From NCBI GenBank assembly GCA_021683455.1, contig GCA_021683455.1_3051.1: a stretch of DNA of 64,000 nucleotides; one strand, given 5' to 3'. Made by a program: the position numbers and the translations under genes. Below are positions 3,781 to 57,721 of the stretch, piece after piece. This stretch comes from a phage. The notes beneath the pieces were generated by a model. It did no database searches. It was not told the DNA's origin and saw only the letters and a list, made by a program, of their open reading frames with translations. Positions within the stretch are counted from its first letter, which is position 1. Each line of letters begins with the position of its first letter.

Positions 3781-4477
<697 letters not shown>

Positions 4478-5191: not shown

Positions 5192-5240
5192 GTGTTTCTC
5201 CTCAAATTTAATTAAGATTATAACACACAAAACTGAAGCA

Positions 5241-5771
5241 TTAAACTTCTGCTATAATTTTTCCATCTTTTTCTACTTGAAAATAGGTGTAAGGAATCGT
5301 TGCAGTACATACTAAGGCCGGGTCTGAATCTTCCGTGTAGCTAAATTCTACTTCAGATAGGTCAGAAACCCAAGGCTTATAAAAATTTATTGACATCACG
5401 ATTTCAGTTTTGCTATTATCTAAGATGTAAAGCGTAATGTATTCAGGACCTGTTTTTTGGGCAGTATTTTCGCCTGTAAGATAGTTACTAGTTCCTAGCA
5501 TCCATTCATACATTCCTATCCATGACTTAAGTTCTTCATCAACTATAAATCTCACAATGAGTGGATCATACTCAAATGTAACACCTGGACGTTGTGCTCG
5601 GCCCAGTCCAAACGGCCCAGTCACGGTATCAGTAACAGGTATTCTAATTCCTGGAATAGGAACTGACTGAGCATTTAAAGTAAAAGCAGATGTAGTATTA
5701 CTATGCGGTATTGATACTACAAAGTTAGTTGTATTTGCTTGGTTAAAAATTTGTTGCAGAGCTTGCGACAT
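5241..5771 (-). CDS. 3: gp3, tail sheath stabiliser / tail completion protein
   Basis: Internal Met at MSQALQQ gives 176 aa as in T4 gp3 (track ORF extends to 5852); synteny. Confidence 0.8.
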   Translation of the reverse strand: MSQALQQIFNQANTTNFVVSIPHSNTTSAFTLNAQSVPIPGIRIPVTDTVTGPFGLGRAQRPGVTFEYDPLIVRFIVDEELKSWIGMYEWMLGTSNYLTGENTAQKTGPEYITLYILDNSKTEIVMSINFYKPWVSDLSEVEFSYTEDSDPALVCTATIPYTYFQVEKDGKIIAEV

Positions 5772-5877
5772 ATATTCCTCATAATGCTTTATAACTGTTG
5801 GTGGTATAATGGGTCTAAGTCCCTTCCATTCAATTCCATTTAGAACAAACAATAGAAAAGAATGGAAGATAATAGAA

Positions 5878-6702
5878 TTAAATATTTGACCAGACTTTGT
5901 TTGCAGAGAAACGTTTTCCTTTTGAAACGAACTGCTGAAGTGGCATCAACACAACGTTCGCCCAGTCTTTCGGGGCGATTTCAGCAAGGCTACCCATAAT
6001 ATTACCGGGTATATATGCCTTAATCATTTGGTCTGCACCTCTAAATCCTTTCACTTGACTCCAATCAATTTTTAATTTCGTTTTATTAGTAATAGTAGGT
6101 GTATTTGAATATTGCTTTAAAAGCTCTTCTAGAAATTGCTGACGAGCTTTAGGTGGAATATAGTGCAAGTTCAATCCGTACATTAAGTTATGCTTACCTA
6201 AACCAAGGTAAATTATCAAAGGAAATTTATCCCAGTAAGGAAGAGCTTCCTTGTGTTTAGCATCATAAGCAAAAGCATATATTCGTCCCGGCTGCGGGCG
6301 AACAACTTTATGTCCTTTTACTTGCTTAATAGTTTCAGCAAACCATTTTCTGGTTTTATTATTAATTGCTGCACCTTCATTACGAATTTTATCGCGCAAT
6401 GTTTGTCTGAATGAATTTATCATAAGCAGTTGTCTTTCTTGCTTATTGAGTTTATTCATTGGTTTTGATTCAAGCTTTTGAATCTTTTCAGCTGTTTTAA
6501 TTCCTGAAGCATATTTTGACATTGCCGAAGTAAATGTAGAATATTTAATTCCTTTTTCTTCGGCAAATTGCTTTCCTGTCATTCCTTTTGCTTTGGCCTT
6601 TTTATATTCAAGACCTATCTGAATCCATTTCTTTTCGTTTAATGATTGCTTAACCTTTGGAACTTGGGGTGTGCTTTCATTAATTATTTGAAAAATAGCC
6701 AT
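5878..6702 (-). CDS. 2: gp2, DNA end protector protein (274 aa)
   Basis: Size identical to T4 gp2; basic protein; synteny. Confidence 0.85.
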
Positions 6703-7154
6703 TATGCCCCCTTAAAGCCAAGAGCTCGTAATCCATCTTCTGTTAGAATTCTAAATTTTATTCCACGCTTTTCAGCTAAAGCTTGCGCTGCTTTCCATTT
6801 ATCGGTGTTAACAGAATATGTATAAATTTCATTCATAAATCTTTTCTTCGCTGCAGTCGTTAGATGTGCTGGTTTAACTGGTGGTTGTGTTTCTTTTTTA
6901 GGCTTTATTTCAATAAAAAATTCTTGTCCAGAAGAATCTTTCATCCAAATATCCATGAAGTATCTACGTTTTTTCCCTTCTGCATTACAAAAATAAGGAA
7001 TTACTGCTGTTTCACTACCCCATGCAATAATTTCTGGATTTTTATCTAACCATTCAAAAAAGAATTTTTCCCAATTTGATCTATACGTAATTTTTTTAGG
7101 GTCACCTCTATATTTTGATATATTTTTAGGAACCCATTTTCCAGAATATGCCAT
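6702..7154 (-). CDS. 4: gp4, head completion protein (150 aa)
   Basis: Size identical to T4 gp4; synteny; late promoter upstream. Confidence 0.85.
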
Positions 7155-7165
7155 TGGATTCTCCT

Positions 7166-7188
7166 TATAAATAGATAATATATTTATA
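7166..7188. promoter_or_regulatory. Divergent overlapping late promoters (TATAAATA on each strand) for gene 53 and gene 4
   Basis: Plus-strand TATAAATA at 7166..7173; minus-strand TATAAATA encoded by tatttata at 7181..7188. Confidence 0.6.
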
Positions 7189-7201
7189 AACAGGAGGGCC
7201 C

Positions 7202-7792
7202 ATGCTCTTTACATTTTTTGATCCGATTGAATATGCGGCCAAAACGGTGAATAAAAACGCGCCGACTATTCCTATGACAGATATTTTTAGAAACTATAAA
7301 GACTATTTCAAACGTGCTCTTGCGGGATACCGCTTACGTACTTATTATATTAAAGGTTCACCACGCCCGGAAGAATTAGCAAATACTATATATGGAAATC
7401 CACAGTTGTATTGGGTTTTATTGATGTGTAATGATAATTATGATCCATATTATGGATGGATTACTTCACAAGAAGCTGCTTATCAAGCATCTATACAAAA
7501 ATACAAAAACGTAGGTGGAGACCAAATAGTATATCATGTAAATGAGAACGGTGAAAAATTTTATAATTTAGTATCATACGATGATAATCCATATGTTTGG
7601 TATGACAAAGGTGATAAAGCTAGAAAATATCCTCAATATGAAGGAGCACTTGCTGCGGTCGATACGTATGAAGCTGCTGTTCTTGAAAATGAAAAACTTC
7701 GTCAAATAAAAATAATAGCAAAATCAGACATCAATTCATTTATGAACGACCTTATACGTATAATGGAGAAATCTTATGGAAATGATAAGTAA
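7202..7792 (+). CDS. 53: gp53, baseplate wedge subunit (196 aa)
   Basis: Size identical to T4 gp53; immediately precedes gene 5. Confidence 0.85.
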   Translation: MLFTFFDPIEYAAKTVNKNAPTIPMTDIFRNYKDYFKRALAGYRLRTYYIKGSPRPEELANTIYGNPQLYWVLLMCNDNYDPYYGWITSQEAAYQASIQKYKNVGGDQIVYHVNENGEKFYNLVSYDDNPYVWYDKGDKARKYPQYEGALAAVDTYEAAVLENEKLRQIKIIAKSDINSFMNDLIRIMEKSYGNDK

Positions 7793-9503
7793 TAACCTTA
7801 ATTGGTTTGTTGGTGTTGTTGAAGATAGAATGGACCCATTAAAATTAGGTCGTGTTCGTGTTCGTGTGGTTGGTCTGCATCCACCACAAAGAGCACAAGG
7901 TGATGTAATGGGTATTCCAACTGAAAAATTACCATGGATGTCAGTTATTCAACCTATAACTTCTGCAGCAATGTCAGGAATTGGAGGTTCTGTTACTGGA
8001 CCGGTAGAAGGAACTAGAGTTTATGGTCATTTTTTGGACAAATGGAAAACTAACGGAATTGTCCTTGGCACGTATGGTGGAATAGTTCGCGAAAAACCGA
8101 ATAGACTTGAAGGATTTTCTGACCCAACTGGGCAGTATCCTAGACGTTTAGGAAATGATACTAACGTACTAAACCAAGGCGGAGAAGTAGGATATGATTC
8201 GTCTTCTAACGTTATCCAAGATAGTAACTTAGACACCGCAATAAATCCCGATGATAGACCACTATCAGAGATTCCAACTGATGATAATCCAAATATGTCA
8301 ATGGCTGAAATGCTTCGCCGTGATGAAGGATTAAGACTAAAAGTTTATTGGGATACTGAAGGATATCCGACAATTGGTATTGGTCATCTTATCATGAAGC
8401 AGCCAGTTCGTGATATGGCTCAAATTAATAAAGTTTTATCAAAACAAGTTGGTCGTGAAATTACTGGAAACCCAGGTTCTATTACAATGGAAGAAGCGAC
8501 GACTTTATTTGAGCGTGATTTGGCTGATATGCAACGTGACATTAAATCACATTCTAAAGTAGGACCAGTCTGGCAAGCAGTTAATCGTTCTCGTCAAATG
8601 GCGTTAGAAAATATGGCATTCCAAATGGGCGTTGGTGGCGTAGCTAAATTTAACACAATGTTAACTGCTATGTTAGCAGGAGATTGGGAAAAAGCATATA
8701 AAGCTGGTCGCGATTCATTGTGGTATCAACAAACAAAAGGCCGTGCATCCCGTGTTACCATGATTATTCTTACGGGGAATTTGGAATCATACGGTATTGA
8801 AGTGAAAACTCCAGCTAGGTCTTTGTCAGCAATGGCTGCTACTGTAGCGAAGTCTTCTGACCCGGCTGACCCTCCTATTCCGAATGATTCAAGAATTTTA
8901 TTCAAAGAACCAGTTTCTTCATATAAAGGCGAATATCCTTATGTGCATACAATGGAAACTGAAAGTGGACATATTCAGGAATTTGATGATACCCCTGGGC
9001 AAGAACGATATAGATTAGTTCATCCAACTGGAACTTATGAAGAAGTATCACCGTCAGGGAGAAGAACAAGAAAAACTGTTGATAATTTGTATGATATAAC
9101 AAATGCTGATGGTAATTTTTTGGTAGCTGGCGATAAAAAGACTAACGTCGGTGGATCAGAAATTTATTACAACATGGATAATCGTCTTCACCAAATAGAT
9201 GGAAGCAATACGATATTTGTGCGTGGAGATGAAACTAAGACAGTTGAAGGTAATGGAACTATCCTAGTTAAAGGTAATGTTACTATTGTAGTTGAAGGTA
9301 ATGCTGACATTACAGTTAAAGGAGATGCTACCACTTTAGTTGAAGGAAATCAAACTAATACAGTAAATGGAAATCTTTCTTGGAAAGTTGCTGGGACAGT
9401 TGATTGGGACGTTGGTGGTGATTGGACAGAAAAAATGGCATCTATGAGTTCTATTTCATCTGGTCAATACACAATTGATGGATCGAGGATTGACATTGGC
9501 TAA
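7776..9503 (+). CDS. 5: gp5, baseplate hub subunit and tail lysozyme (cell-puncturing device, 575 aa)
   Basis: N-terminus MEMISNNLNWFVGVVEDRMDPLKLGRVRVRV matches my recall of T4 gp5; internal lysozyme domain; C-terminal VxGxxxxx beta-helix repeats. Confidence 0.95.
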   Translation: MEMISNNLNWFVGVVEDRMDPLKLGRVRVRVVGLHPPQRAQGDVMGIPTEKLPWMSVIQPITSAAMSGIGGSVTGPVEGTRVYGHFLDKWKTNGIVLGTYGGIVREKPNRLEGFSDPTGQYPRRLGNDTNVLNQGGEVGYDSSSNVIQDSNLDTAINPDDRPLSEIPTDDNPNMSMAEMLRRDEGLRLKVYWDTEGYPTIGIGHLIMKQPVRDMAQINKVLSKQVGREITGNPGSITMEEATTLFERDLADMQRDIKSHSKVGPVWQAVNRSRQMALENMAFQMGVGGVAKFNTMLTAMLAGDWEKAYKAGRDSLWYQQTKGRASRVTMIILTGNLESYGIEVKTPARSLSAMAATVAKSSDPADPPIPNDSRILFKEPVSSYKGEYPYVHTMETESGHIQEFDDTPGQERYRLVHPTGTYEEVSPSGRRTRKTVDNLYDITNADGNFLVAGDKKTNVGGSEIYYNMDNRLHQIDGSNTIFVRGDETKTVEGNGTILVKGNVTIVVEGNADITVKGDATTLVEGNQTNTVNGNLSWKVAGTVDWDVGGDWTEKMASMSSISSGQYTIDGSRIDIG

Positions 9504-10032
9504 TATACTTCCAATGAGCGCTGATTTAGGAGAATCCATGGAAGGTTCTTCTATCGACGTCACCTTTACCGCTCAATTAGAAACAGGTGAAACGTTAGTA
9601 TCTATAAATATAACTAGTTACGAAGAAACTCCTGGGGTTTTAGTAGAAGAAAATCGCTTATACGGAACATATGAATCTGTGTTTGGATTTGGAAATGACG
9701 CGTTGAAATATCGTTTAGGTGATGAATTTAAAACTGCTGCTTCATGGGAAGAACTTCCTACTGATTCTGACACTCAGTTGTATTTGTGGAAAGCTCCTCA
9801 GAATCTCCAGAAGACATTCACTTACGAAGTAACATTAATATATGACTACCAAGAACAAAGTGAATCTGGAGGTTCTGGCAGTAATTCTAGGTCATCTTCT
9901 GATACTACTGAACCAACAGATCCTCCTGCTCCAGTAAGAAAAACTCTAGTTAAAAATTATACTAAAACTATAGTTGGAAATTGGAGTCGTTGGGCTAATA
10001 AATTAAGAAGCTATGTGTATGAGAGGCCATAG
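9478..10032 (+). CDS. 5.1: gp5.1-like baseplate-associated hypothetical protein
   Basis: ORF between 5 and 5.4; track start at 9475 is TTG, ATG at 9478; overlaps the 3' end of gene 5. Confidence 0.6.
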   Translation: MDRGLTLANILPMSADLGESMEGSSIDVTFTAQLETGETLVSINITSYEETPGVLVEENRLYGTYESVFGFGNDALKYRLGDEFKTAASWEELPTDSDTQLYLWKAPQNLQKTFTYEVTLIYDYQEQSESGGSGSNSRSSSDTTEPTDPPAPVRKTLVKNYTKTIVGNWSRWANKLRSYVYERP

Positions 10033-10326
10033 ATGTCAGGATTAAGTTATGATAAATGTGTTACTGCTGGTCATGAAGCATGGCCTCCAACAGTTGTGAA
10101 TGCTACACAAAGTAAAGTATTCACTGGAGGAATTGCTGTTCTAATAGCAGGCGATCCAATTACAGAACATACAGAAATCAAAAAGCCATATGAAACACAT
10201 GGCGGAGTGACACAACCTAGAACTTCTAAGGTATATGTCACAGGAAAGAAAGCTGTTCAAATGGCTGATTCAATATCATGTGGTGATACTGTGGCTCAGG
10301 CATCATCTAAAGTATTCATTAAATAG
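10033..10326 (+). CDS. 5.4: gp5.4, PAAR-repeat spike tip protein (97 aa)
   Basis: 97 aa as T4 gp5.4; position between 5 and 6. Confidence 0.75.
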
Positions 10327-10334
10327 GATTTAAA

Positions 10335-12317
10335 ATGGCAAATACCCCTGTAAATTATCAATTAACAAGAACAGCAAATGCTATTCCCGAGATATTCGTC
10401 GGGGGTACGTTTGCTGAAATAAAACAAAACCTCATTGAATGGCTTAATGGCCAAAATGAATTTTTGGATTATGATTTTGAAGGCTCAAGATTAAACGTTC
10501 TGTGCGACCTTTTAGCTTATAATACATTGTACATTCAGCAGTTTGGTAATGCTGCTGTGTATGAAAGCTTTATGCGTACTGCTAACTTACGTAGTTCGGT
10601 AGTTCAAGCGGCACAAGATAATGGATATTTACCTACTTCAAAATCAGCTGCTCAAACTGAAATTATGCTAACTTGTACAGATGCATTGAATAGAAATTAC
10701 ATTACTATTCCTCGCGGTACTCGCTTTTTAGCATATGCAAAGGATACTTCTGTTAATCCATATAACTTCGTTTCTACCGAAGACGTTATTGCTATTCGTG
10801 ATAAAAATAACCAATATTTTCCACGATTAAAATTAGCCCAGGGACGTATAGTAAGAACTGAAATCATTTATGATAAATTAACACCTATTATCATTTATGA
10901 CAAAAACATAGATAGAAACCAAGTTAAACTATACGTTGATGGAGCAGAATGGATTAACTGGACAAGAAAGTCAATGGTTCATGCTGGTTCTACATCAACA
11001 ATTTACTACATGCGTGAAACTATTGATGGAAACACTGAATTCTATTTTGGCGAAGGTGAAATTTCTGTTAATGCGGCAGAAGGAGCTCTAACTGCTAACT
11101 ATATTGGAGGTCTTAAACCTACCCAGAACTCTACTATTGTTATTGAGTACATCAGTACTAACGGTGCAGATGCGAATGGTGCAGTCGGATTTTCATACGC
11201 AGATACATTAACAAATATAACTGTCATCAATATTAACGAAAATCCAAATGATGACCCAGATTTTGTTGGGGCCGATGGCGGTGGCGATCCAGAAGATATT
11301 GAGCGTATTCGCGAATTGGGTACTATTAAACGCGAAACCCAGCAACGCTGCGTAACTGCGACCGACTATGATACATTCGTTTCAGAGAGATTTGGTTCTA
11401 TTATTCAAGCTGTTCAGACTTTCACTGATTCTACTAAACCTGGGTATGCATTTATTGCTGCTAAACCTAAATCAGGACTATATTTAACTACTGTGCAACG
11501 TGAAGATATTAAAAATTATCTCAAAGACTATAATTTAGCGCCTATTACACCGTCAATTATTTCTCCTAATTATCTTTTTATTAAGACTAATTTAAAAGTC
11601 ACATATGCTTTAAATAAACTACAAGAATCCGAACAGTGGCTTGAAGGTCAAATAATTGATAAAATTGATCGCTATTATACCGAAGATGTAGAAATTTTTA
11701 ACTCATCTTTTGCCAAGTCTAAGATGTTAACTTACGTAGATGATGCAGATCATTCTATCATTGGTTCATCAGCGACTATTCAAATTGTTCGTGAAGTACA
11801 AAACTTCTATAAAACGCCTGAAGCAGGTATTAAATACAATAATCAAATAAAAGATCGTTCTATGGAATCTAATACGTTTTCATTTAATTCTGGACGAAAG
11901 GTTGTAAATCCTGATACTGGTTTAGAAGAAGATGTATTATATGACGTTCGTATAGTATCAACAGACCGAGATTCTAAAGGAATTGGTAAAGTTATTATTG
12001 GTCCATTTGTTTCTGGCGATGTTACAGAAAATGAAAACATTCAGCCGTATACGGGCAACGATTTTAACAAATTAGCAAATTCTGATGGACGCGACAAATA
12101 CTATGTTATCGGTGAAATAAATTATCCAGCTGACATGATTTATTGGAATATCGCTAAAATTAATTTAACATCTGAAAAATTTGAAGTTCAGACTATTGAA
12201 TTATATTCTGACCCAACCGATGATGTTATCTTTACTCGCGATGGTTCACTGATTGTATTTGAAAATGACTTACGTCCACAATACTTAACTATCGATTTGG
12301 AGCCTATATCACAATGA
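10335..12317 (+). CDS. 6: gp6, baseplate wedge subunit (660 aa)
   Basis: Size identical to T4 gp6; synteny. Confidence 0.9.
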   Translation: MANTPVNYQLTRTANAIPEIFVGGTFAEIKQNLIEWLNGQNEFLDYDFEGSRLNVLCDLLAYNTLYIQQFGNAAVYESFMRTANLRSSVVQAAQDNGYLPTSKSAAQTEIMLTCTDALNRNYITIPRGTRFLAYAKDTSVNPYNFVSTEDVIAIRDKNNQYFPRLKLAQGRIVRTEIIYDKLTPIIIYDKNIDRNQVKLYVDGAEWINWTRKSMVHAGSTSTIYYMRETIDGNTEFYFGEGEISVNAAEGALTANYIGGLKPTQNSTIVIEYISTNGADANGAVGFSYADTLTNITVININENPNDDPDFVGADGGGDPEDIERIRELGTIKRETQQRCVTATDYDTFVSERFGSIIQAVQTFTDSTKPGYAFIAAKPKSGLYLTTVQREDIKNYLKDYNLAPITPSIISPNYLFIKTNLKVTYALNKLQESEQWLEGQIIDKIDRYYTEDVEIFNSSFAKSKMLTYVDDADHSIIGSSATIQIVREVQNFYKTPEAGIKYNNQIKDRSMESNTFSFNSGRKVVNPDTGLEEDVLYDVRIVSTDRDSKGIGKVIIGPFVSGDVTENENIQPYTGNDFNKLANSDGRDKYYVIGEINYPADMIYWNIAKINLTSEKFEVQTIELYSDPTDDVIFTRDGSLIVFENDLRPQYLTIDLEPISQ

Positions 12318-52946: not shown

Positions 52947-52951
52947 CAATG

Positions 52952-52978
52952 GGGACCGAAAGGTCCCCATATTTTTAT
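52952..52978. terminator. Bidirectional terminator between gene 54 and the alt operon
   Basis: ggggacc-GAAA-ggtcccc hairpin with flanking T-run. Confidence 0.6.
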
Positions 52979-53265
52979 TTACGGAATGAAATAAAAGCAG
53001 CAACTGAAGAAACAGAGGTTTCTTCAATATAAACCTCAATTTTTACCGGAGCTTCTGACTCAAATTTACCTGTTACTACACCTTGGAAAATACTTTCAGT
53101 CTGTTCTGGCTTTGAAAAATTTTCAGAAGGAAAAATTCCAAACTTTTTATCGGTTCCGAAAATTTTAATAAATTCATCATAAACTGCTTCATTGAAAGCG
53201 TTATCAGCGGGAATAACGCCCTCAACGACGAGTTCTTGACCTAAAAAGCGCAAAGAAGATTTCAT
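52975..53265 (-). CDS. Hypothetical protein (96 aa) downstream of alt
   Basis: ORF in alt-operon orientation; no motif recognised. Confidence 0.55.
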   Translation of the reverse strand: MKSSLRFLGQELVVEGVIPADNAFNEAVYDEFIKIFGTDKKFGIFPSENFSKPEQTESIFQGVVTGKFESEAPVKIEVYIEETSVSSVAAFISFRK

Positions 53266-53325
53266 TTTGTGTTCCTCATGTTATGTCAGTAAAACTACTA
53301 TAACACAATACGAGGGACTTGTAAA

Positions 53326-55383
53326 CTACATTTTGAACTTTTTAGACATTCCGTTGATGTTAACCAAAGAAGCTAAGATTTGAGAAACTTCGCTTTCCTC
53401 TTCTTTTGATTCTTCTACAAGGAATTGATTAAATCTAGCCATTGGACGAACTTCTCCGGTTTCCATCAAATGGTCACCATCATATACCGATTCCTCTAAT
53501 TGTTCAGAAGGAGGAACAATCGTGCCTTCAATTAGATACTTATTATAAGCGGTTTCTTTCATCATGTACGTACTTACTTTATTAATCTTCAGTAAAATTC
53601 CACGTGGTAGAATAACTTCAGCTTCTGATGGAAATCCTGATAAATGACCTGGAACGATAACTTTGATTCGCTCAGCTCCTTTAATTACCATACCCACGCT
53701 AGTTTCAGCATCTTCATTAGCATATGTAGAATGACTACCCATATGCATCAAATCTTCTGCATCAACAGAACCTTCTCCTTCGCCAGAAAATACTGCGCCG
53801 GAATCATCTAGAGCCATATAGTTTTTACCATGCTCACCGAAGATATTTGGTTTAAGCGATGTGGATACGAAGTTCTTGAAATAGAACATTTTATTTTCAA
53901 TGTTATGACGCAAAGTTTTAAAGGTAACTTCTTGTCCACGGTAAAGTGTAGTTCCTGGAGGAAGAACTGAACCTTTAGCGAATGCAGAATCAAGCGTCTC
54001 AATATGTTTAATAGCTCGTTCCATATATTCTTCACGGGTAGAATCTGGTTTACCTAAAAGGAATGAGTTCATTTCAACATATGAATCTGCACAATAATCT
54101 TCAATTACATCAGATTCAGCCTGAGTTAATCCTTTTGGAGTTACTTCAGTACTTGCATATTCATATGCCTGAGCGGCAGATTCATCAATTAATTTATAAA
54201 TTCCATTCATTACAAATTGAATAATAGCTGTCTTTTCATCTGGTGTAGCTTTAGAACCTTTAACTAAATCATTGATAATTTTCTTAATAACATCAAAACT
54301 ATTAGAAATATTAATGTCAGCAAGATCGCTTAAAATTTTATCAGTTTTATAATCAAAGAATTCTTTATTCTTTAAATATTCTTGAGAACCTTGATATGTT
54401 ATATCGCTCTGCAACTTGATAGATGGATCACGTAAACGTGCATGGGCTAATGCAATATGATTTCGGAAACTTTCTAGTTCATAATCGTTAGATTTAAAAC
54501 GAGAAGCACTTCTCATACCACCGATAGCTCCTTTGCTAAAGTTTGAACCAATCTGGATAACCCCGGAGTTCATTGGTCCTTCTGCTTTATACACCGGAAC
54601 TTTAGATTCAAACTCTTGATATTTCTTAGCAGCGAAGCTATCGCCTTGAAGCGAAGCATCGACAGTAGAATATTGAGCTTGTGCTGCTAATCGACGACTA
54701 ATTTTAGTTTTCTGAATAACAGCTTGATCCGTACGCTTATCATTTTCTAAAGCAATAGAAGCAGCAACTGCGACAGCTTTAGGAACAGCATTACCTGTTT
54801 TAACATCTACATAAACATCACCGACCTTCGATTCAACTTTTGTGAATAGCTCTGTTGAAATAGGAGGTACACCTGGAATGTCTTCTAAATTGGCATTTTT
54901 ACGGTAAACCATAATATATGCATATTTCTTATCATAGTCCCAGATTTCCTTTAAAAGAACATATCGACCTGCTCCTTTAGTACGTACTAAGCGGTCAGCA
55001 ATAACTTGCATTTGACGAGCTGCGCCATTTGTTTTACTTTTTAGTACGCGGAATAGGCATGCATCAATTTTATACTGTTTCATTGTTTGAAGAGCAGTAT
55101 CAAAAACAGCATTAATGACGCCAATTGGATTTCCACCCAAGTTTTTAAGCTTAACTAACGATAATTTCTCGTTGACACCTATCATTACGATATGCATCAT
55201 TTTGTCGCCTGGCTTAACGTTTTTATTCGTATCACCACCAGAGGTGTATGTACAAAATCTAAATCCAGGAAGCACGCTTTCTTCACCGGCTTGAATAGCA
55301 AAAATTTGAGGTATTTTATGCTTAGGATTTAAGTTAACAACCGGCGCCGAAGCGCCGTCAAATAATTCTGTAATAAGTTCCAT
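53326..55383 (-). CDS. alt: Alt-family mono-ADP-ribosyltransferase, paralog A (685 aa)
   Basis: R-S-E catalytic signature (LYRGQ, FVSTSL, EAEVILPRG); N-terminus MELITELFD shared with the upstream paralog; T4 Alt is 682 aa. Confidence 0.85.
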   Translation of the reverse strand: MELITELFDGASAPVVNLNPKHKIPQIFAIQAGEESVLPGFRFCTYTSGGDTNKNVKPGDKMMHIVMIGVNEKLSLVKLKNLGGNPIGVINAVFDTALQTMKQYKIDACLFRVLKSKTNGAARQMQVIADRLVRTKGAGRYVLLKEIWDYDKKYAYIMVYRKNANLEDIPGVPPISTELFTKVESKVGDVYVDVKTGNAVPKAVAVAASIALENDKRTDQAVIQKTKISRRLAAQAQYSTVDASLQGDSFAAKKYQEFESKVPVYKAEGPMNSGVIQIGSNFSKGAIGGMRSASRFKSNDYELESFRNHIALAHARLRDPSIKLQSDITYQGSQEYLKNKEFFDYKTDKILSDLADINISNSFDVIKKIINDLVKGSKATPDEKTAIIQFVMNGIYKLIDESAAQAYEYASTEVTPKGLTQAESDVIEDYCADSYVEMNSFLLGKPDSTREEYMERAIKHIETLDSAFAKGSVLPPGTTLYRGQEVTFKTLRHNIENKMFYFKNFVSTSLKPNIFGEHGKNYMALDDSGAVFSGEGEGSVDAEDLMHMGSHSTYANEDAETSVGMVIKGAERIKVIVPGHLSGFPSEAEVILPRGILLKINKVSTYMMKETAYNKYLIEGTIVPPSEQLEESVYDGDHLMETGEVRPMARFNQFLVEESKEEESEVSQILASLVNINGMSKKFKM

Positions 55384-55386
55384 GAT

Positions 55387-57483
55387 TTATCCTTGAACGA
55401 ACTTGTAAGGCATGTTTGCAATATCTATGCAAGACGCAATAATTCCAAGAGATGATTCTACTTTTTGTTTAACATTTGATGAAACAAATGATGCAAAGTC
55501 AACTCTGTCTTCTATTTCAATATCACCTGTCATTGCAACTACTTCACCAGTTTCCATTAGACGGTCTCCGTCATAGATTATCGATTCGGTGAGCTCTTCC
55601 GTGGTCATAACTTCAGCTTGAATGAGTTTTGTATTATTAGATGTTGTTCCGTCATTATTAGAAGCATCAGTTATTTTATTAACTTTGACCATCAATCCAC
55701 GCGGTAGAATAACTTCAGCTTCTGTTGCTATTCCGAGACTTCCTGGATATACAACATTAACTTTATGAGCTCCATCAATTGCCCATCCTATTTGAACTTT
55801 AACGTATTCAGGATTTTCTTTATACGCTCTTATTTCGTTTGGATTAATAGTTATTCCTTCTTCATTTTTATCAACTGTTAATTCATTGCGAGCTTCTGGT
55901 TCTAAAAGACCAATACCAGCATGTGTGATTCCAAAACGTCCAAAAATGATAGGAGTTAAAGAAGTAGATACAAAATTTCTGAAGTAGAACACTTTATTTT
56001 TAACTAACGCTTCATATATAGGAGCAGTCATACTTTGAGCACGATAAACTGTAATGCCTTCTGGTATACGGTCACCATTTTCAAAAGCTGAATCTAAGTT
56101 ATTTATAGCAGATTCAATTTCTTTTTCATTCATTACATCATATCGTTCTGGATTGTAACGACCTAAAAGAAGATTATTGATGTCAGTATATCCTGAACCG
56201 CAATATTCTCTAATGCCACGCTTTTGTGATGGAGTATATTTAGAACCATCGCGTGCAATAGTAATATCAATCATTGGACCAGCACCAATTCCAGAAAAAC
56301 TGTAAATCATTCGTTTGAGGAATTTAGTTTTTGCTGCGTTCCAGGAATTTTTAGTTATTTCTTCCCAGACTTCATCTGATTGTCCTTTACGATTTTTATT
56401 ATGATTAGCAAGCCATTTATCTTTATAATCTTCAAAGAATTGATTTACAGCTGCTGCGTATTTCTCTAAACATTTTATTGAAGTAGTTGGTTCATTTTTA
56501 ATTGCATTAAAAATTACTTCTTTAATTTTTTCTGAAACTTCACCGACTTGACTCATTGGAAAGAATTTATAATCATAGTGAAGTTCATCTGCCGTTCCTT
56601 CAGCAATAATTTTTGCTGCCTTTGTTTTAGAAGCTAATGAATTAATTCCAATTTTCATTTCTTCTGCTTCGGGAATTAAAGGTGCAGTAGCTGGTTTATT
56701 AAAATTGGCTGCTGTAGATTCATACTTCTGGAATAATTCACTTTCAAATCTAGAAGATTCCAATGACTGACTTTGTGCAATTGCTCTACGGGAAATTTTA
56801 ACTTTAACGATTACAGCTTGGTCAGAACGTTTATCATTTTCTTGTGCAATAGATGCTGCAATTGCCTCATTTTTAGTTACTTGAGCTCCAGTATCTTTAT
56901 TGATATAAACATCACCGACCTTCGATTCAACTTTAGTAAAGAGCTCTGTACTAATTTCCGGAACTCCTGGAATGTCTTCTAGTGATACATTTTTGCGATG
57001 TATAAGAATATATGCATACTTTTTATCGTAATCCCAGAGTTCCTTAAGAAGGACGTATCTGCCACCTGAACGACTACGGATAAGTCTATCAGCAATAAGT
57101 TGAATTTGTCGAGCTTGACCGGCGGTTTTAGACTTAAGAATACGAAGCATGCAGGCATCAATTTTATATTGACGCATTGTTTGCATTGCAACAGTAAAAA
57201 CTGAATTGATATAATTAATCGGGCTTGGACCAAGACCTTTTAATTTAGCAATTGAACCTTTAGCAGTTAATGTAAAAGGAACAATATGCATCATTTTATC
57301 GCCCATCTTTAAATCGCGATTAGTATCACCTCCAGATGTATATGTACATAAACGAAAGCCTGGCTGTTCAATTGCATCATCAACATGAACTGAAAAAATT
57401 TGCGGTATTTTCTTCTTTGGATTTAAGTTTGTAATCGGAAGAGTAGTATCTTCGTCAAATAATTCTGTAATAAGTTCCATCAT
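55387..57483 (-). CDS. alt: Alt-family mono-ADP-ribosyltransferase, paralog B (698 aa)
   Basis: Same N-terminal (residues ~1..230) and C-terminal ART modules (VYRAQ, FVSTSL, EAEVILPRG) as paralog A; central ~250 residues diverged. Confidence 0.85.
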   Translation of the reverse strand: MMELITELFDEDTTLPITNLNPKKKIPQIFSVHVDDAIEQPGFRLCTYTSGGDTNRDLKMGDKMMHIVPFTLTAKGSIAKLKGLGPSPINYINSVFTVAMQTMRQYKIDACMLRILKSKTAGQARQIQLIADRLIRSRSGGRYVLLKELWDYDKKYAYILIHRKNVSLEDIPGVPEISTELFTKVESKVGDVYINKDTGAQVTKNEAIAASIAQENDKRSDQAVIVKVKISRRAIAQSQSLESSRFESELFQKYESTAANFNKPATAPLIPEAEEMKIGINSLASKTKAAKIIAEGTADELHYDYKFFPMSQVGEVSEKIKEVIFNAIKNEPTTSIKCLEKYAAAVNQFFEDYKDKWLANHNKNRKGQSDEVWEEITKNSWNAAKTKFLKRMIYSFSGIGAGPMIDITIARDGSKYTPSQKRGIREYCGSGYTDINNLLLGRYNPERYDVMNEKEIESAINNLDSAFENGDRIPEGITVYRAQSMTAPIYEALVKNKVFYFRNFVSTSLTPIIFGRFGITHAGIGLLEPEARNELTVDKNEEGITINPNEIRAYKENPEYVKVQIGWAIDGAHKVNVVYPGSLGIATEAEVILPRGLMVKVNKITDASNNDGTTSNNTKLIQAEVMTTEELTESIIYDGDRLMETGEVVAMTGDIEIEDRVDFASFVSSNVKQKVESSLGIIASCIDIANMPYKFVQG

Positions 57484-57503
57484 ATCCTCTCTAGTGTTTA
57501 TTC

Positions 57504-57511
57504 TATTTATA
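57504..57511 (-). promoter_or_regulatory. Late promoter TATAAATA for the alt operon
   Basis: Minus-strand TATAAATA about 20 nt upstream of the paralog B start; fits late synthesis of head-packaged Alt. Confidence 0.55.
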
Positions 57512-57532
57512 AAATTAAAGGCCCGAAGGCCT

Positions 57533-57721
57533 TTAATAATCTATTGGTAAGAGAGTACGATATATTTCAAACTTTGGACCTTTTTCATAAGCATCAAAAG
57601 TTTCTGTGAATTTATTATAAGCATATGCATCTATAAATTCGAGAATGACTTGTGATACAGAAGTAGAAACATCTCCACCTTCTTTTTGAGCAATGACAAT
57701 TGTTTCTAAGTAAGCTTTCAT
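57533..57721 (-). CDS. Hypothetical protein (62 aa) between ligase and alt
   Basis: Small ORF overlapping the ligase stop by 4 nt. Confidence 0.45.
   Translation of the reverse strand: MKAYLETIVIAQKEGGDVSTSVSQVILEFIDAYAYNKFTETFDAYEKGPKFEIYRTLLPIDY

Follow-up and report, generated by a model that had tools for sequence, protein, structure and literature searches.

Two intact neighbouring Alt-family ADP-ribosyltransferase genes at the alt locus of a T4-like phage, with evidence for exchange of their middle and catalytic regions

Results

A tandem pair of genes at the alt locus

The DNA analysed here is a stretch of 64,000 nucleotides from a phage (NCBI GenBank assembly GCA_021683455.1, contig GCA_021683455.1_3051.1), which we refer to as the window; all positions are counted from its first letter. 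At the alt locus, the window contains two intact, neighbouring genes for ADP-ribosyltransferases (ARTs) of the Alt family, which are paralogues of each other. They are called paralogue A (a full-length alt.-2) and paralogue B (the orthologue of T4 alt) below. Both genes lie on the minus strand (Table 1), and the stop codon of B and the ATG of A are separated by 3 nt. The gene order is that of T4: genes 48 and 54, followed on the opposite strand by alt.-3, the two ART genes, alt.1 and gene 30 (DNA ligase).

An earlier note on this DNA, made from the sequence alone, had described adjacent open reading frames (ORFs) of 685 and 698 aa. Both ORFs exist, and in a BLASTP comparison their products are 41% identical (E 2e-162). 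Depending on the start ATG chosen, the product of B is 697 or 698 aa long. The second ATG (57480, 697 aa) is probably the correct start, because T4, RB51 and T6 have been annotated in this way and because the spacing to the GAGG Shine-Dalgarno sequence fits better.

In a three-way alignment, the windowed identity between A and B was 68% over residues 1-238 and fell to a background level of approximately 20%, with many gaps, over residues 239-405. In the same alignment the ART region (approximately residues 406-625) was approximately 34% identical, with islands of identity at the catalytic motifs, and the C-terminal tail approximately 40% identical. Both proteins begin with the residues MELITELFD. 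The earlier description of the N-terminal ~230 residues as common to both proteins is borne out by these values. The central part is unrelated, as had been claimed, but it extends over approximately 165 residues (239-405) and not over approximately 250. Likewise, the R-S-E catalytic core was said to be preserved, which holds for the motifs but not for the sequence outside them, where identity is only approximately 34%. A swap of the middle region alone, with both ends kept, had also been proposed. The N domain and the C-terminal propeptide are indeed conserved as ends, but what varies between them is the middle plus the ART domain as one unit.

Both proteins match phrog_802 from end to end (A residues 1-685, E 6e-256; B residues 1-696, E 2e-271), and NCBIfam contains no model for either of them. 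As far as can be judged from sequence, A and B show every feature by which membership of the Alt family can be recognised, and both can be placed in the R-S-E clade of ARTs.

Table 1. Position of the two ART genes, their predicted domains and the associated elements in the window
Feature	Position	Strand	Evidence
A, full-length alt.-2, 685 aa	53326..55383	-	ORF; phrog_802; alt.-2 label in RB51, RB14 and T6
A, N-terminal propeptide MELITE with gp21 motif ITE-6	55366..55383	-	Alignment, motif scan
A, N-terminal alpha/beta domain, residues 7-238	54670..55365	-	68% identical to N domain of B; same AF2 topology as B
A, variable middle, residues 239-405: disordered linker ~239-272, then helical bundle 273-413	54169..54669	-	AF2 model
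A, ART domain, residues 406-631, ends at LEE-631	53491..54168	-	Pfam PF03496; LEE aligns with T4 LTE-619
A, putative C-terminal propeptide (54 aa, pI 4.75) and stop codon	53326..53490	-	Cleavage predicted from motif
B, alt orthologue, 697 aa (698 aa from first ATG, 57483)	55387..57480	-	ORF; comparison with T4 Alt; phrog_802; alt in RB51 and T6
B, N-terminal propeptide MELITE, ends at gp21 site ITE-6	57463..57480	-	Identical to T4 Alt; motif scan
B, N-terminal alpha/beta domain, residues 7-238 (Alt-N, PF26846)	56767..57462	-	AF2 pLDDT 70-90; 97-100% nt identity to T4 alt
B, variable middle, residues 239-405: short disordered linker, then helical bundle	56266..56766	-	AF2 model
B, ART domain, residues 406-632, ends at gp21 site LTE-632	55585..56265	-	Pfam PF03496, motifs
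B, putative C-terminal propeptide (65 aa, acidic, pI 4.2) and stop codon	55387..55584	-	Aligns with 63-aa C-propeptide of T4 Alt; 89-100% nt identity to T4
T4-type late promoter TATAAATA, upstream of B	57504..57511	-	Read directly, motif search
Hairpin AAAGGCC-TTCG-GGCCTTT, overlaps alt.1 stop codon, just upstream of late promoter	57517..57534	-	Sequence read
Segment of A missing in T4 (1,690 bp), bounded by 9-nt direct repeat CTAAAAAGT	53346..55035	-	blastn of T4 locus, junction sequences
alt.-3 (96 aa, DUF5498), next gene downstream, not part of the ART pair	52975..53265	-	Pfam PF17602, E 1e-61
AF2, AlphaFold2; pLDDT, predicted local distance difference test; pI, isoelectric point.

Middle regions and catalytic domains

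AlphaFold2 (AF2) models were made of residues 1-420 of A and B, with a mean pLDDT of 76 and 80, respectively. The underlying alignments were shallow (18-21 sequences), because searches of large protein collections with short queries added nothing: a profile of the A-type middle gave 1 match and residues 228-467 of B gave 3. In both models approximately 10 disordered residues are followed by an alpha/beta domain up to residue ~238 (pLDDT 70-90), a linker of low confidence (residues 240-272 in A, 239-247 in B) and a bundle of 7-8 helices (pLDDT 80-92) that ends where the ART domain begins. The helical middle domain measures approximately 130-165 residues. For homologues, the first domain is given as PF26846 (Alt N-terminal domain) in precomputed annotation.

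The two middle regions are similar in size and in number of helices in these models, with no detectable sequence relationship. BLASTP gave no match between them, and HHalign gave a probability of 1.3% when the profile of the A-type middle was compared with that of the B/T4-type middle. The same A-type profile matched a third group at 89.5%. A good alignment of the centres once gaps were allowed had been named earlier as a finding that would refute the note; after both gapped and profile-profile alignment they are still unrelated. An artefact of gapped alignment was therefore ruled out, since the profile-profile comparison failed as well.

Both ART domains were recognised by Pfam model PF03496 (ADPrib_exo_Tox, gathering cut-off 23.4 bits), A with 72 bits (E 5.5e-20) and B with 130.6 bits (E 6.1e-38). 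The catalytic motifs are YR482, S507-T-S and E587-A-E589 in A, and YR480, S505-T-S and E587-A-E589 in B. A sequence search of the PDB returned CDTa as the sole match (E 0.39).

Paralogue B as a variant of T4 Alt

B shares 99% of its residues with T4 Alt in the N domain and 94% in the C-terminal tail, and is therefore the alt orthologue. Its middle is only approximately 30% identical to the middle of T4 Alt, and its ART domain approximately 62% identical to the ART domain of T4 Alt. The same pattern was found at the nucleotide level: identity to T4 alt was 97-100% in codons 1-240, 40-60% in the middle, 50-80% in the ART domain and 89-100% from approximately codon 619 onwards. The synonymous divergence (dS) was approximately 0.1 in the flanks and approximately 1.0-1.3 between them. 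Judging by these comparisons, the middle and ART domain of B are a different allele from that of T4 Alt over residues ~260-620. The biochemistry of T4 Alt is thus not simply transferable, even to B. Middle regions of the B type were found in 320 phage records at an identity of at least 80%.

Paralogue A is under constraint

The reading frame of A was unbroken in 4 of the 4 phages from which it was extracted (T6, RB51, fFiEco06 and BF15). The ratio of non-synonymous to synonymous substitution rates (dN/dS) of A was calculated against these phages by the Nei-Gojobori method. The comparisons contained 67-100 synonymous and 10-16 non-synonymous differences and gave a dN/dS of 0.03-0.04, which was similarly low across the N domain, middle, ART domain and tail. 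For the ART segment, dN/dS was 0.03-0.06 (23-30 synonymous versus 3.5-5 non-synonymous changes). The protein is therefore under strong constraint and is not a decaying duplicate. In combination with the intact catalytic motifs, the dN/dS of 0.03-0.04 ruled out that A is a pseudogene.

Expression signals

The late promoter TATAAATA lies 21 nt before the first ATG of B. Together with the hairpin and the ribosome-binding site (RBS) upstream of B, it is conserved base for base in T4, T6 and fFiEco06. The block is also recognisably conserved in phage fDHCT2, which belongs to a different genus and in which the late promoter appears as CATAAATA. The core of the hairpin, AAGGCCTTCGGGCCTTT, is invariant in all 5 phages aligned, including fDHCT2, though the flanks diverge. 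A scan for terminators did not list this hairpin (57517-57534); it is likely to be a terminator, or an element for RNA stability or processing, of the upstream gene 30/alt.1 transcript. In T4, the transcripts and protein of alt are late, after gp33, gp45 and gp55 (PMC9697503).

Only one promoter had been seen earlier, the TATAAATA upstream of B. This one is confirmed and conserved in T4, but a second match to TATAAATA is present on the coding strand inside B (56100-56107), in the codons A-I-N-N. The internal copy is probably a chance match: in BF15 a synonymous substitution has removed it, and T4-type alleles do not contain it. This lack of conservation also ruled out that it serves A as a separate late promoter. 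No conserved late promoter of A's own was found, no terminator-like site is present on the coding strand between B and A, and an AAGGA sequence, the putative RBS of A, overlaps the last codons of B. The simplest reading is therefore that A and B would be co-transcribed from the alt late promoter.

Processing and packaging signals

T4 Alt is cut by gp21 after ITE-6 and LTE-619, resulting in a protein of 68.2 kDa as determined by mass spectrometry (Ali et al. 2017, PMC5694885). The second cut removes a C-terminal propeptide of 63 aa (PMC5694885), and the trimming of T4 Alt by gp21 is also described in a review (PMC9026906). Our mapping of the cleavage sites reproduced the 68.2 kDa for T4 Alt. 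At the aligned positions, A contains ITE-6 and LEE-631 (predicted mature size 69.1 kDa) and B contains ITE-6 and LTE-632 (70.1 kDa). The C-terminal propeptides of A and B are acidic, with a pI of 4.2-4.75. With gp21 motifs at the aligned positions, both paralogues therefore keep every known Alt processing signal. The earlier expectation that the N-terminal part carries targeting and processing signals agrees with this: the N-terminal propeptide and the N domain have been kept in both, and so has a C-terminal gp21 motif.

T4 Alt is present in the virion in approximately 40 copies and is injected together with the DNA (PMC9958956, PMC9026906). In a study of virions of a T4-like phage of Klebsiella, a single ART was detected. 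Our literature search retrieved no work on virions with two Alts.

Distribution, annotation and loss in T4

A 4.8-kb query over the pair matched 543 phage records, of which 334 cover at least 80% of the query at 90-98% identity. The matching records are Tequatrovirus phages of Escherichia, Shigella, Yersinia, Citrobacter and Salmonella. The label in RefSeq is 'Alt-like RNA polymerase ADP-ribosyltransferase (x2)'. In GenBank, RB51 and RB14 list the 685-aa ORF as alt.-2, the T6 record mentions an alt.-2 with an 'apparent insertion' and also states its similarity to alt, and the RefSeq note of fFiEco06 spells out the relation to T4 Alt.-1 and Alt.-2. Paralogues of alt were reported by Nolan 2006 (PMC1524935) in 44RR (ORF187c/188c, one of them full-length) and RB49 (ORF183c). 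A 2026 genome paper on phage 6phi13 (PMC13600099) describes two Alt-like paralogues with 43% identity, and proposes functional divergence and a wider target range. The tandem pair is thus already known: it is annotated in hundreds of genomes and has been remarked on in print with the same hypothesis. The novelty implied by the earlier note is not supported. One of the refuting conditions that the note itself had set largely applies, because annotators already treat the second ORF as a standard gene (alt.-2 in RB14, RB51 and T6; 'x2' in RefSeq).

It had been foreseen that one copy might correspond to an ORF next to alt in T4, and this is the case. The products of T4 alt.-1 (61 aa) and alt.-2 (67 aa) align with residues 1-56 and 62-117 of A, respectively, at 89-90% identity, and A is their intact form. 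On this evidence the T4 genes alt.-1 and alt.-2 are a decayed remnant of gene A. The RefSeq note of T4 attributes them to an old duplication of the first part of alt. In T4 the gene has been broken by two changes: a 1-nt deletion in an A-run, causing a frameshift between alt.-1 and alt.-2, and a deletion of the segment listed in Table 1, exactly between two copies of the direct repeat CTAAAAAGT. These copies are located at 53337-53345 and 55036-55044 of the window, and the repeat is at 4105-4113 of the T4 locus.

The middle of A was found at an identity of at least 90% in 402 records, including T6, RB7, RB14, RB51 and RB68, versus only 91 records with the T4 deletion junction. Two intact genes are therefore the usual condition, from which T4 deviates. 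Since the 91 genomes have one and the same junction, the deletion is either a shared ancestral event or the result of recurrent slippage.

Cassette-like variation of the alt locus

The alleles of the two genes reassort: fFiEco06 and PM123 pair A with a T4-type Alt. Phage fDHCT2 (OR427838) contains three tandem alt genes, each 3 nt apart (locus positions 5215-11475). The first of these (labelled alt_3) has a cargo, i.e. middle and ART domain, of the B type. B and this gene agree in the ART domain at 94% of amino acids and 87-93% of nucleotides, and in the N domain at only 45%. The middle gene has a third type of cargo and the last gene a cargo of the A type (middle 44-48% and ART domain 51-58% identical). 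The 94% identity of the ART domain versus the 45% of the N domain implies a recent transfer of the catalytic module between genera. In general, the N domains cluster by genome (identity of 66-88% among the fDHCT2 genes, 68% between A and B, and 41-45% across the two phages), whereas the cargo clusters by type and not by genome.

In the database proteins P0003-P0006 everything from the middle to the tail is of the A type, with 98-100% identity to A. Their N domains, by contrast, form a series in which the identity to A and B shifts stepwise from 92/75% (A-like) to 70/97% (B-like). These natural chimeras are evidence that the N-domain sequences of the tandem genes have undergone recombination or gene conversion. 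Across 66 full-length representatives of the family, the length of the middle ranges from 120 to 196 residues, and the middles form 40 groups without a BLAST match between them.

In the comparison of B with T4 alt, identity and dS shift sharply at codons ~240-260 and at codon ~619, and the latter, 3' boundary coincides with the C-terminal cleavage site of gp21. This suggests that the N domain and the C-propeptide are constant 'handles' around exchangeable cassettes of middle and ART domain. We hold it to be about as likely as not that the alt locus is a polymorphic system of injected-effector cassettes, in which arrays of 1-3 genes exchange their warheads even between genera. On the same reading the lineage-specific Alt-N domain, which we propose as the head-loading module of B, may be a general loading adaptor for injected proteins, including non-ART cargo. 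No paper describing cassette evolution of the alt locus, or Alt-N as a head-loading adaptor, was found in the literature searched.

Alt-N was also encountered on proteins of other kinds. P0201, P0216 and P0226 (proteins of 485-1142 aa) match phrog_802 only at profile positions ~5-220 (E 1e-29 to 1e-36) and are without an ART domain; their remaining 300-900 residues gave no Pfam or PHROG match. In a Foldseek search against BFVD, some phage proteins with the annotation deaminase, Zeta toxin or ParB-like were found to begin with the Alt-N fold (E 1e-4 to 1e-3). Many members of the family begin with L-x-E followed by h-F-D, e.g. MKPLFE-IFD and MTEFQLNE-VFD. The presence of Alt-N on non-ART proteins, together with these L-x-E starts, suggests a general head-loading adaptor.

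Neighbouring elements and database records

The alt.-3 gene has an early-type promoter, GTTTACA-17-TATAGT with an upstream TG (53297-53325, minus strand). This promoter starts directly after the TAG stop codon of A, with 53325 as the first base of its TTTACA hexamer. T4 mutants that escape the CmdTAC defence system do so by C-terminal extension of Alt.-3 (PMC11618068). Downstream of the alt array there is therefore a gene of a separate temporal class, with a link to counter-defence.

Between the convergent gene 54 and alt.-3 lies a perfect hairpin with a stem of 9 bp, ATGGGGACC-GAAA-GGTCCCCAT (52949-52970), which is terminator-like on both strands and is probably a bidirectional terminator. 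On the other side of the pair, alt.1 (62 aa, 57533-57721, minus strand) matches PF24647 'Phage blade protein' (E 1.7e-29), and its reading frame shares 4 nt with the end of gene 30.

Some of the related sequences carry unexpected host labels. The Alt-like fragments P0235 and P0236 are assigned to Enterococcus faecalis in NCBI, and PV654520.1 (142 kb, 'Pseudomonas phage vB_PSGBLB0006') contains a middle region that is 97.6% identical to that of A. These labels look like contamination or mislabelled T4-like coliphage sequence.

Discussion

We consider it likely that A and B are both made late, loaded into the prohead, trimmed by gp21 and injected, and that they act as mono-ADP-ribosyltransferases with different sets of substrates. 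Both genes would be transcribed late from the TATAAATA upstream of B, and A would be translated from its own AAGGA ribosome-binding site. The conserved N- and C-terminal ends would load both proteins into the prohead core, and gp21 would trim them at ITE-6 and at the LxE site at position ~631/632, giving mature proteins of ~69 and ~70 kDa. In the next infection A and B would be injected with the DNA and would ADP-ribosylate host macromolecules. The unrelated middles and the ~34%-identical ART domains would provide the two enzymes with different substrate sets. For A we thus infer packaging, cleavage and activity, and for the pair distinct targets.

Several points weigh against this. Our literature search retrieved no proteomic or biochemical work on Alt.-2 being in the virion, cleaved or active. 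The C-terminal site of A reads LEE and not LTE. The middles of A and B could be very diverged homologues with overlapping function, because both are predicted helical bundles of similar size and helix count. Finally, T4 does well without alt.-2, and 91 deposited genomes share its deletion, so that alt.-2 is dispensable on common hosts.

The deviating LEE motif, together with a C-terminal tail that is only ~40% identical to that of B, could also mean that A is produced late without being packaged. It would then act in the producing cell, like ModA and ModB, or have an assembly or regulatory role for Alt. We regard this as unlikely in view of the identical MELITELFD, the N domain with 68% identity and the LxE site at the aligned position. 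In addition, P0003-P0006 carry A-type cargo on N domains that grade to the B type, which suggests that the N domains are interchangeable. To our knowledge ModA and ModB of T4 are without the Alt N domain, which also counts against such a role for A.

Dosage redundancy was considered as well. In that case both enzymes would do the job of T4 Alt, with RNA polymerase alpha and the other Alt substrates as targets, and the duplicate would only raise the amount that is injected. The architecture, promoter and processing motifs that A and B have in common fit this explanation, as do the loss of one copy in T4 without obvious cost and the prediction of helical bundles of similar size for both middles. 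However, duplicates kept for dosage are expected to be similar, or homogenised, over their whole length and not in the N domain alone, whereas the middles of A and B are without detectable homology and the ART domains are only ~34% identical. Moreover, the two types of cargo remain separate in different genera (A is similar to alt_1 and B to alt_3 of fDHCT2, in our gene labels), and purifying selection acts on each. With these arguments, dosage redundancy becomes quite improbable.

That A is catalytically dead or decaying, a pseudo-enzyme on its way to the state seen in T4, is hardly credible: it would agree with the gene loss in T4 and 91 records and with the Pfam score below that of B (72 versus 131 bits), but the R, S-T-S and E-x-E motifs are intact, dN/dS of the ART segment is 0.03-0.06, the frame is intact in four phages and the middle of A is present at an identity of at least 90% in 402 records.

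Two packaged and injected ARTs with different substrates, the reading that we prefer, can be compared with several known systems. The closest is T4 Alt itself (NP_049811, 682 aa). B is orthologous to it and occupies the corresponding place, flanked by alt.1/gene 30 and gene 54, with the same hairpin, late promoter, RBS, ITE-6 and LTE sites and R-S-E ART family. The alt.-1/alt.-2 gene is broken in T4, whereas A is intact and under selection in the window. Alt paralogues of other T4-like phages are found in tandem at the same locus and differ in copy number (1-3) and in their lineage-specific N domains (41-45% identity across genera).

The T4 internal proteins IPI-IPIII resemble Alt in that they are late, reside in the prohead core, are trimmed by gp21 after L/I-x-E, are injected and are highly polymorphic among T-even phages (PMC9026906). 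They have only a capsid targeting sequence (CTS) of 10-19 residues, whereas Alt proteins have a propeptide of 6 residues, a folded N domain of ~230 residues and a C-terminal propeptide. Polymorphic toxins and MuF-fused polyvalent effectors, which serve here as a working analogy, likewise combine a conserved delivery module with exchanged enzymatic 'warheads' (PMC5512222, PMC9503650). In the Alt array, however, delivery would be by Alt-N and not by MuF or Rhs, and a cleavable C-propeptide flanks the cassette. No immunity gene was found beside either Alt module; the 3-nt gap is empty, and the next gene, alt.-3, is conserved whatever the type of cassette. With the R-S-E ARTs VIP2, C3, iota and CDTa (PF03496), A and B have the catalytic family and motifs in common. 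They differ from these toxins in being without a binary-toxin adaptor domain and in their proposed delivery by a phage head.

Nearly all knowledge of injected ARTs is derived from T4, a phage that has lost alt.-2, while most of its relatives encode a second, uncharacterised enzyme. Because T4 is without the gene, little attention has been paid to what Alt.-2 does. Should the targets of the two enzymes be different host proteins or defence systems, the alt array would help to account for the way in which therapeutic T4-like phages differ in host range and host takeover. If the cassette reading is true, it would be the effector repertoire, and not Alt alone, that is tuned to the host strain or to its defence content. 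The conserved ends of Alt could also serve to load foreign proteins into phage heads.

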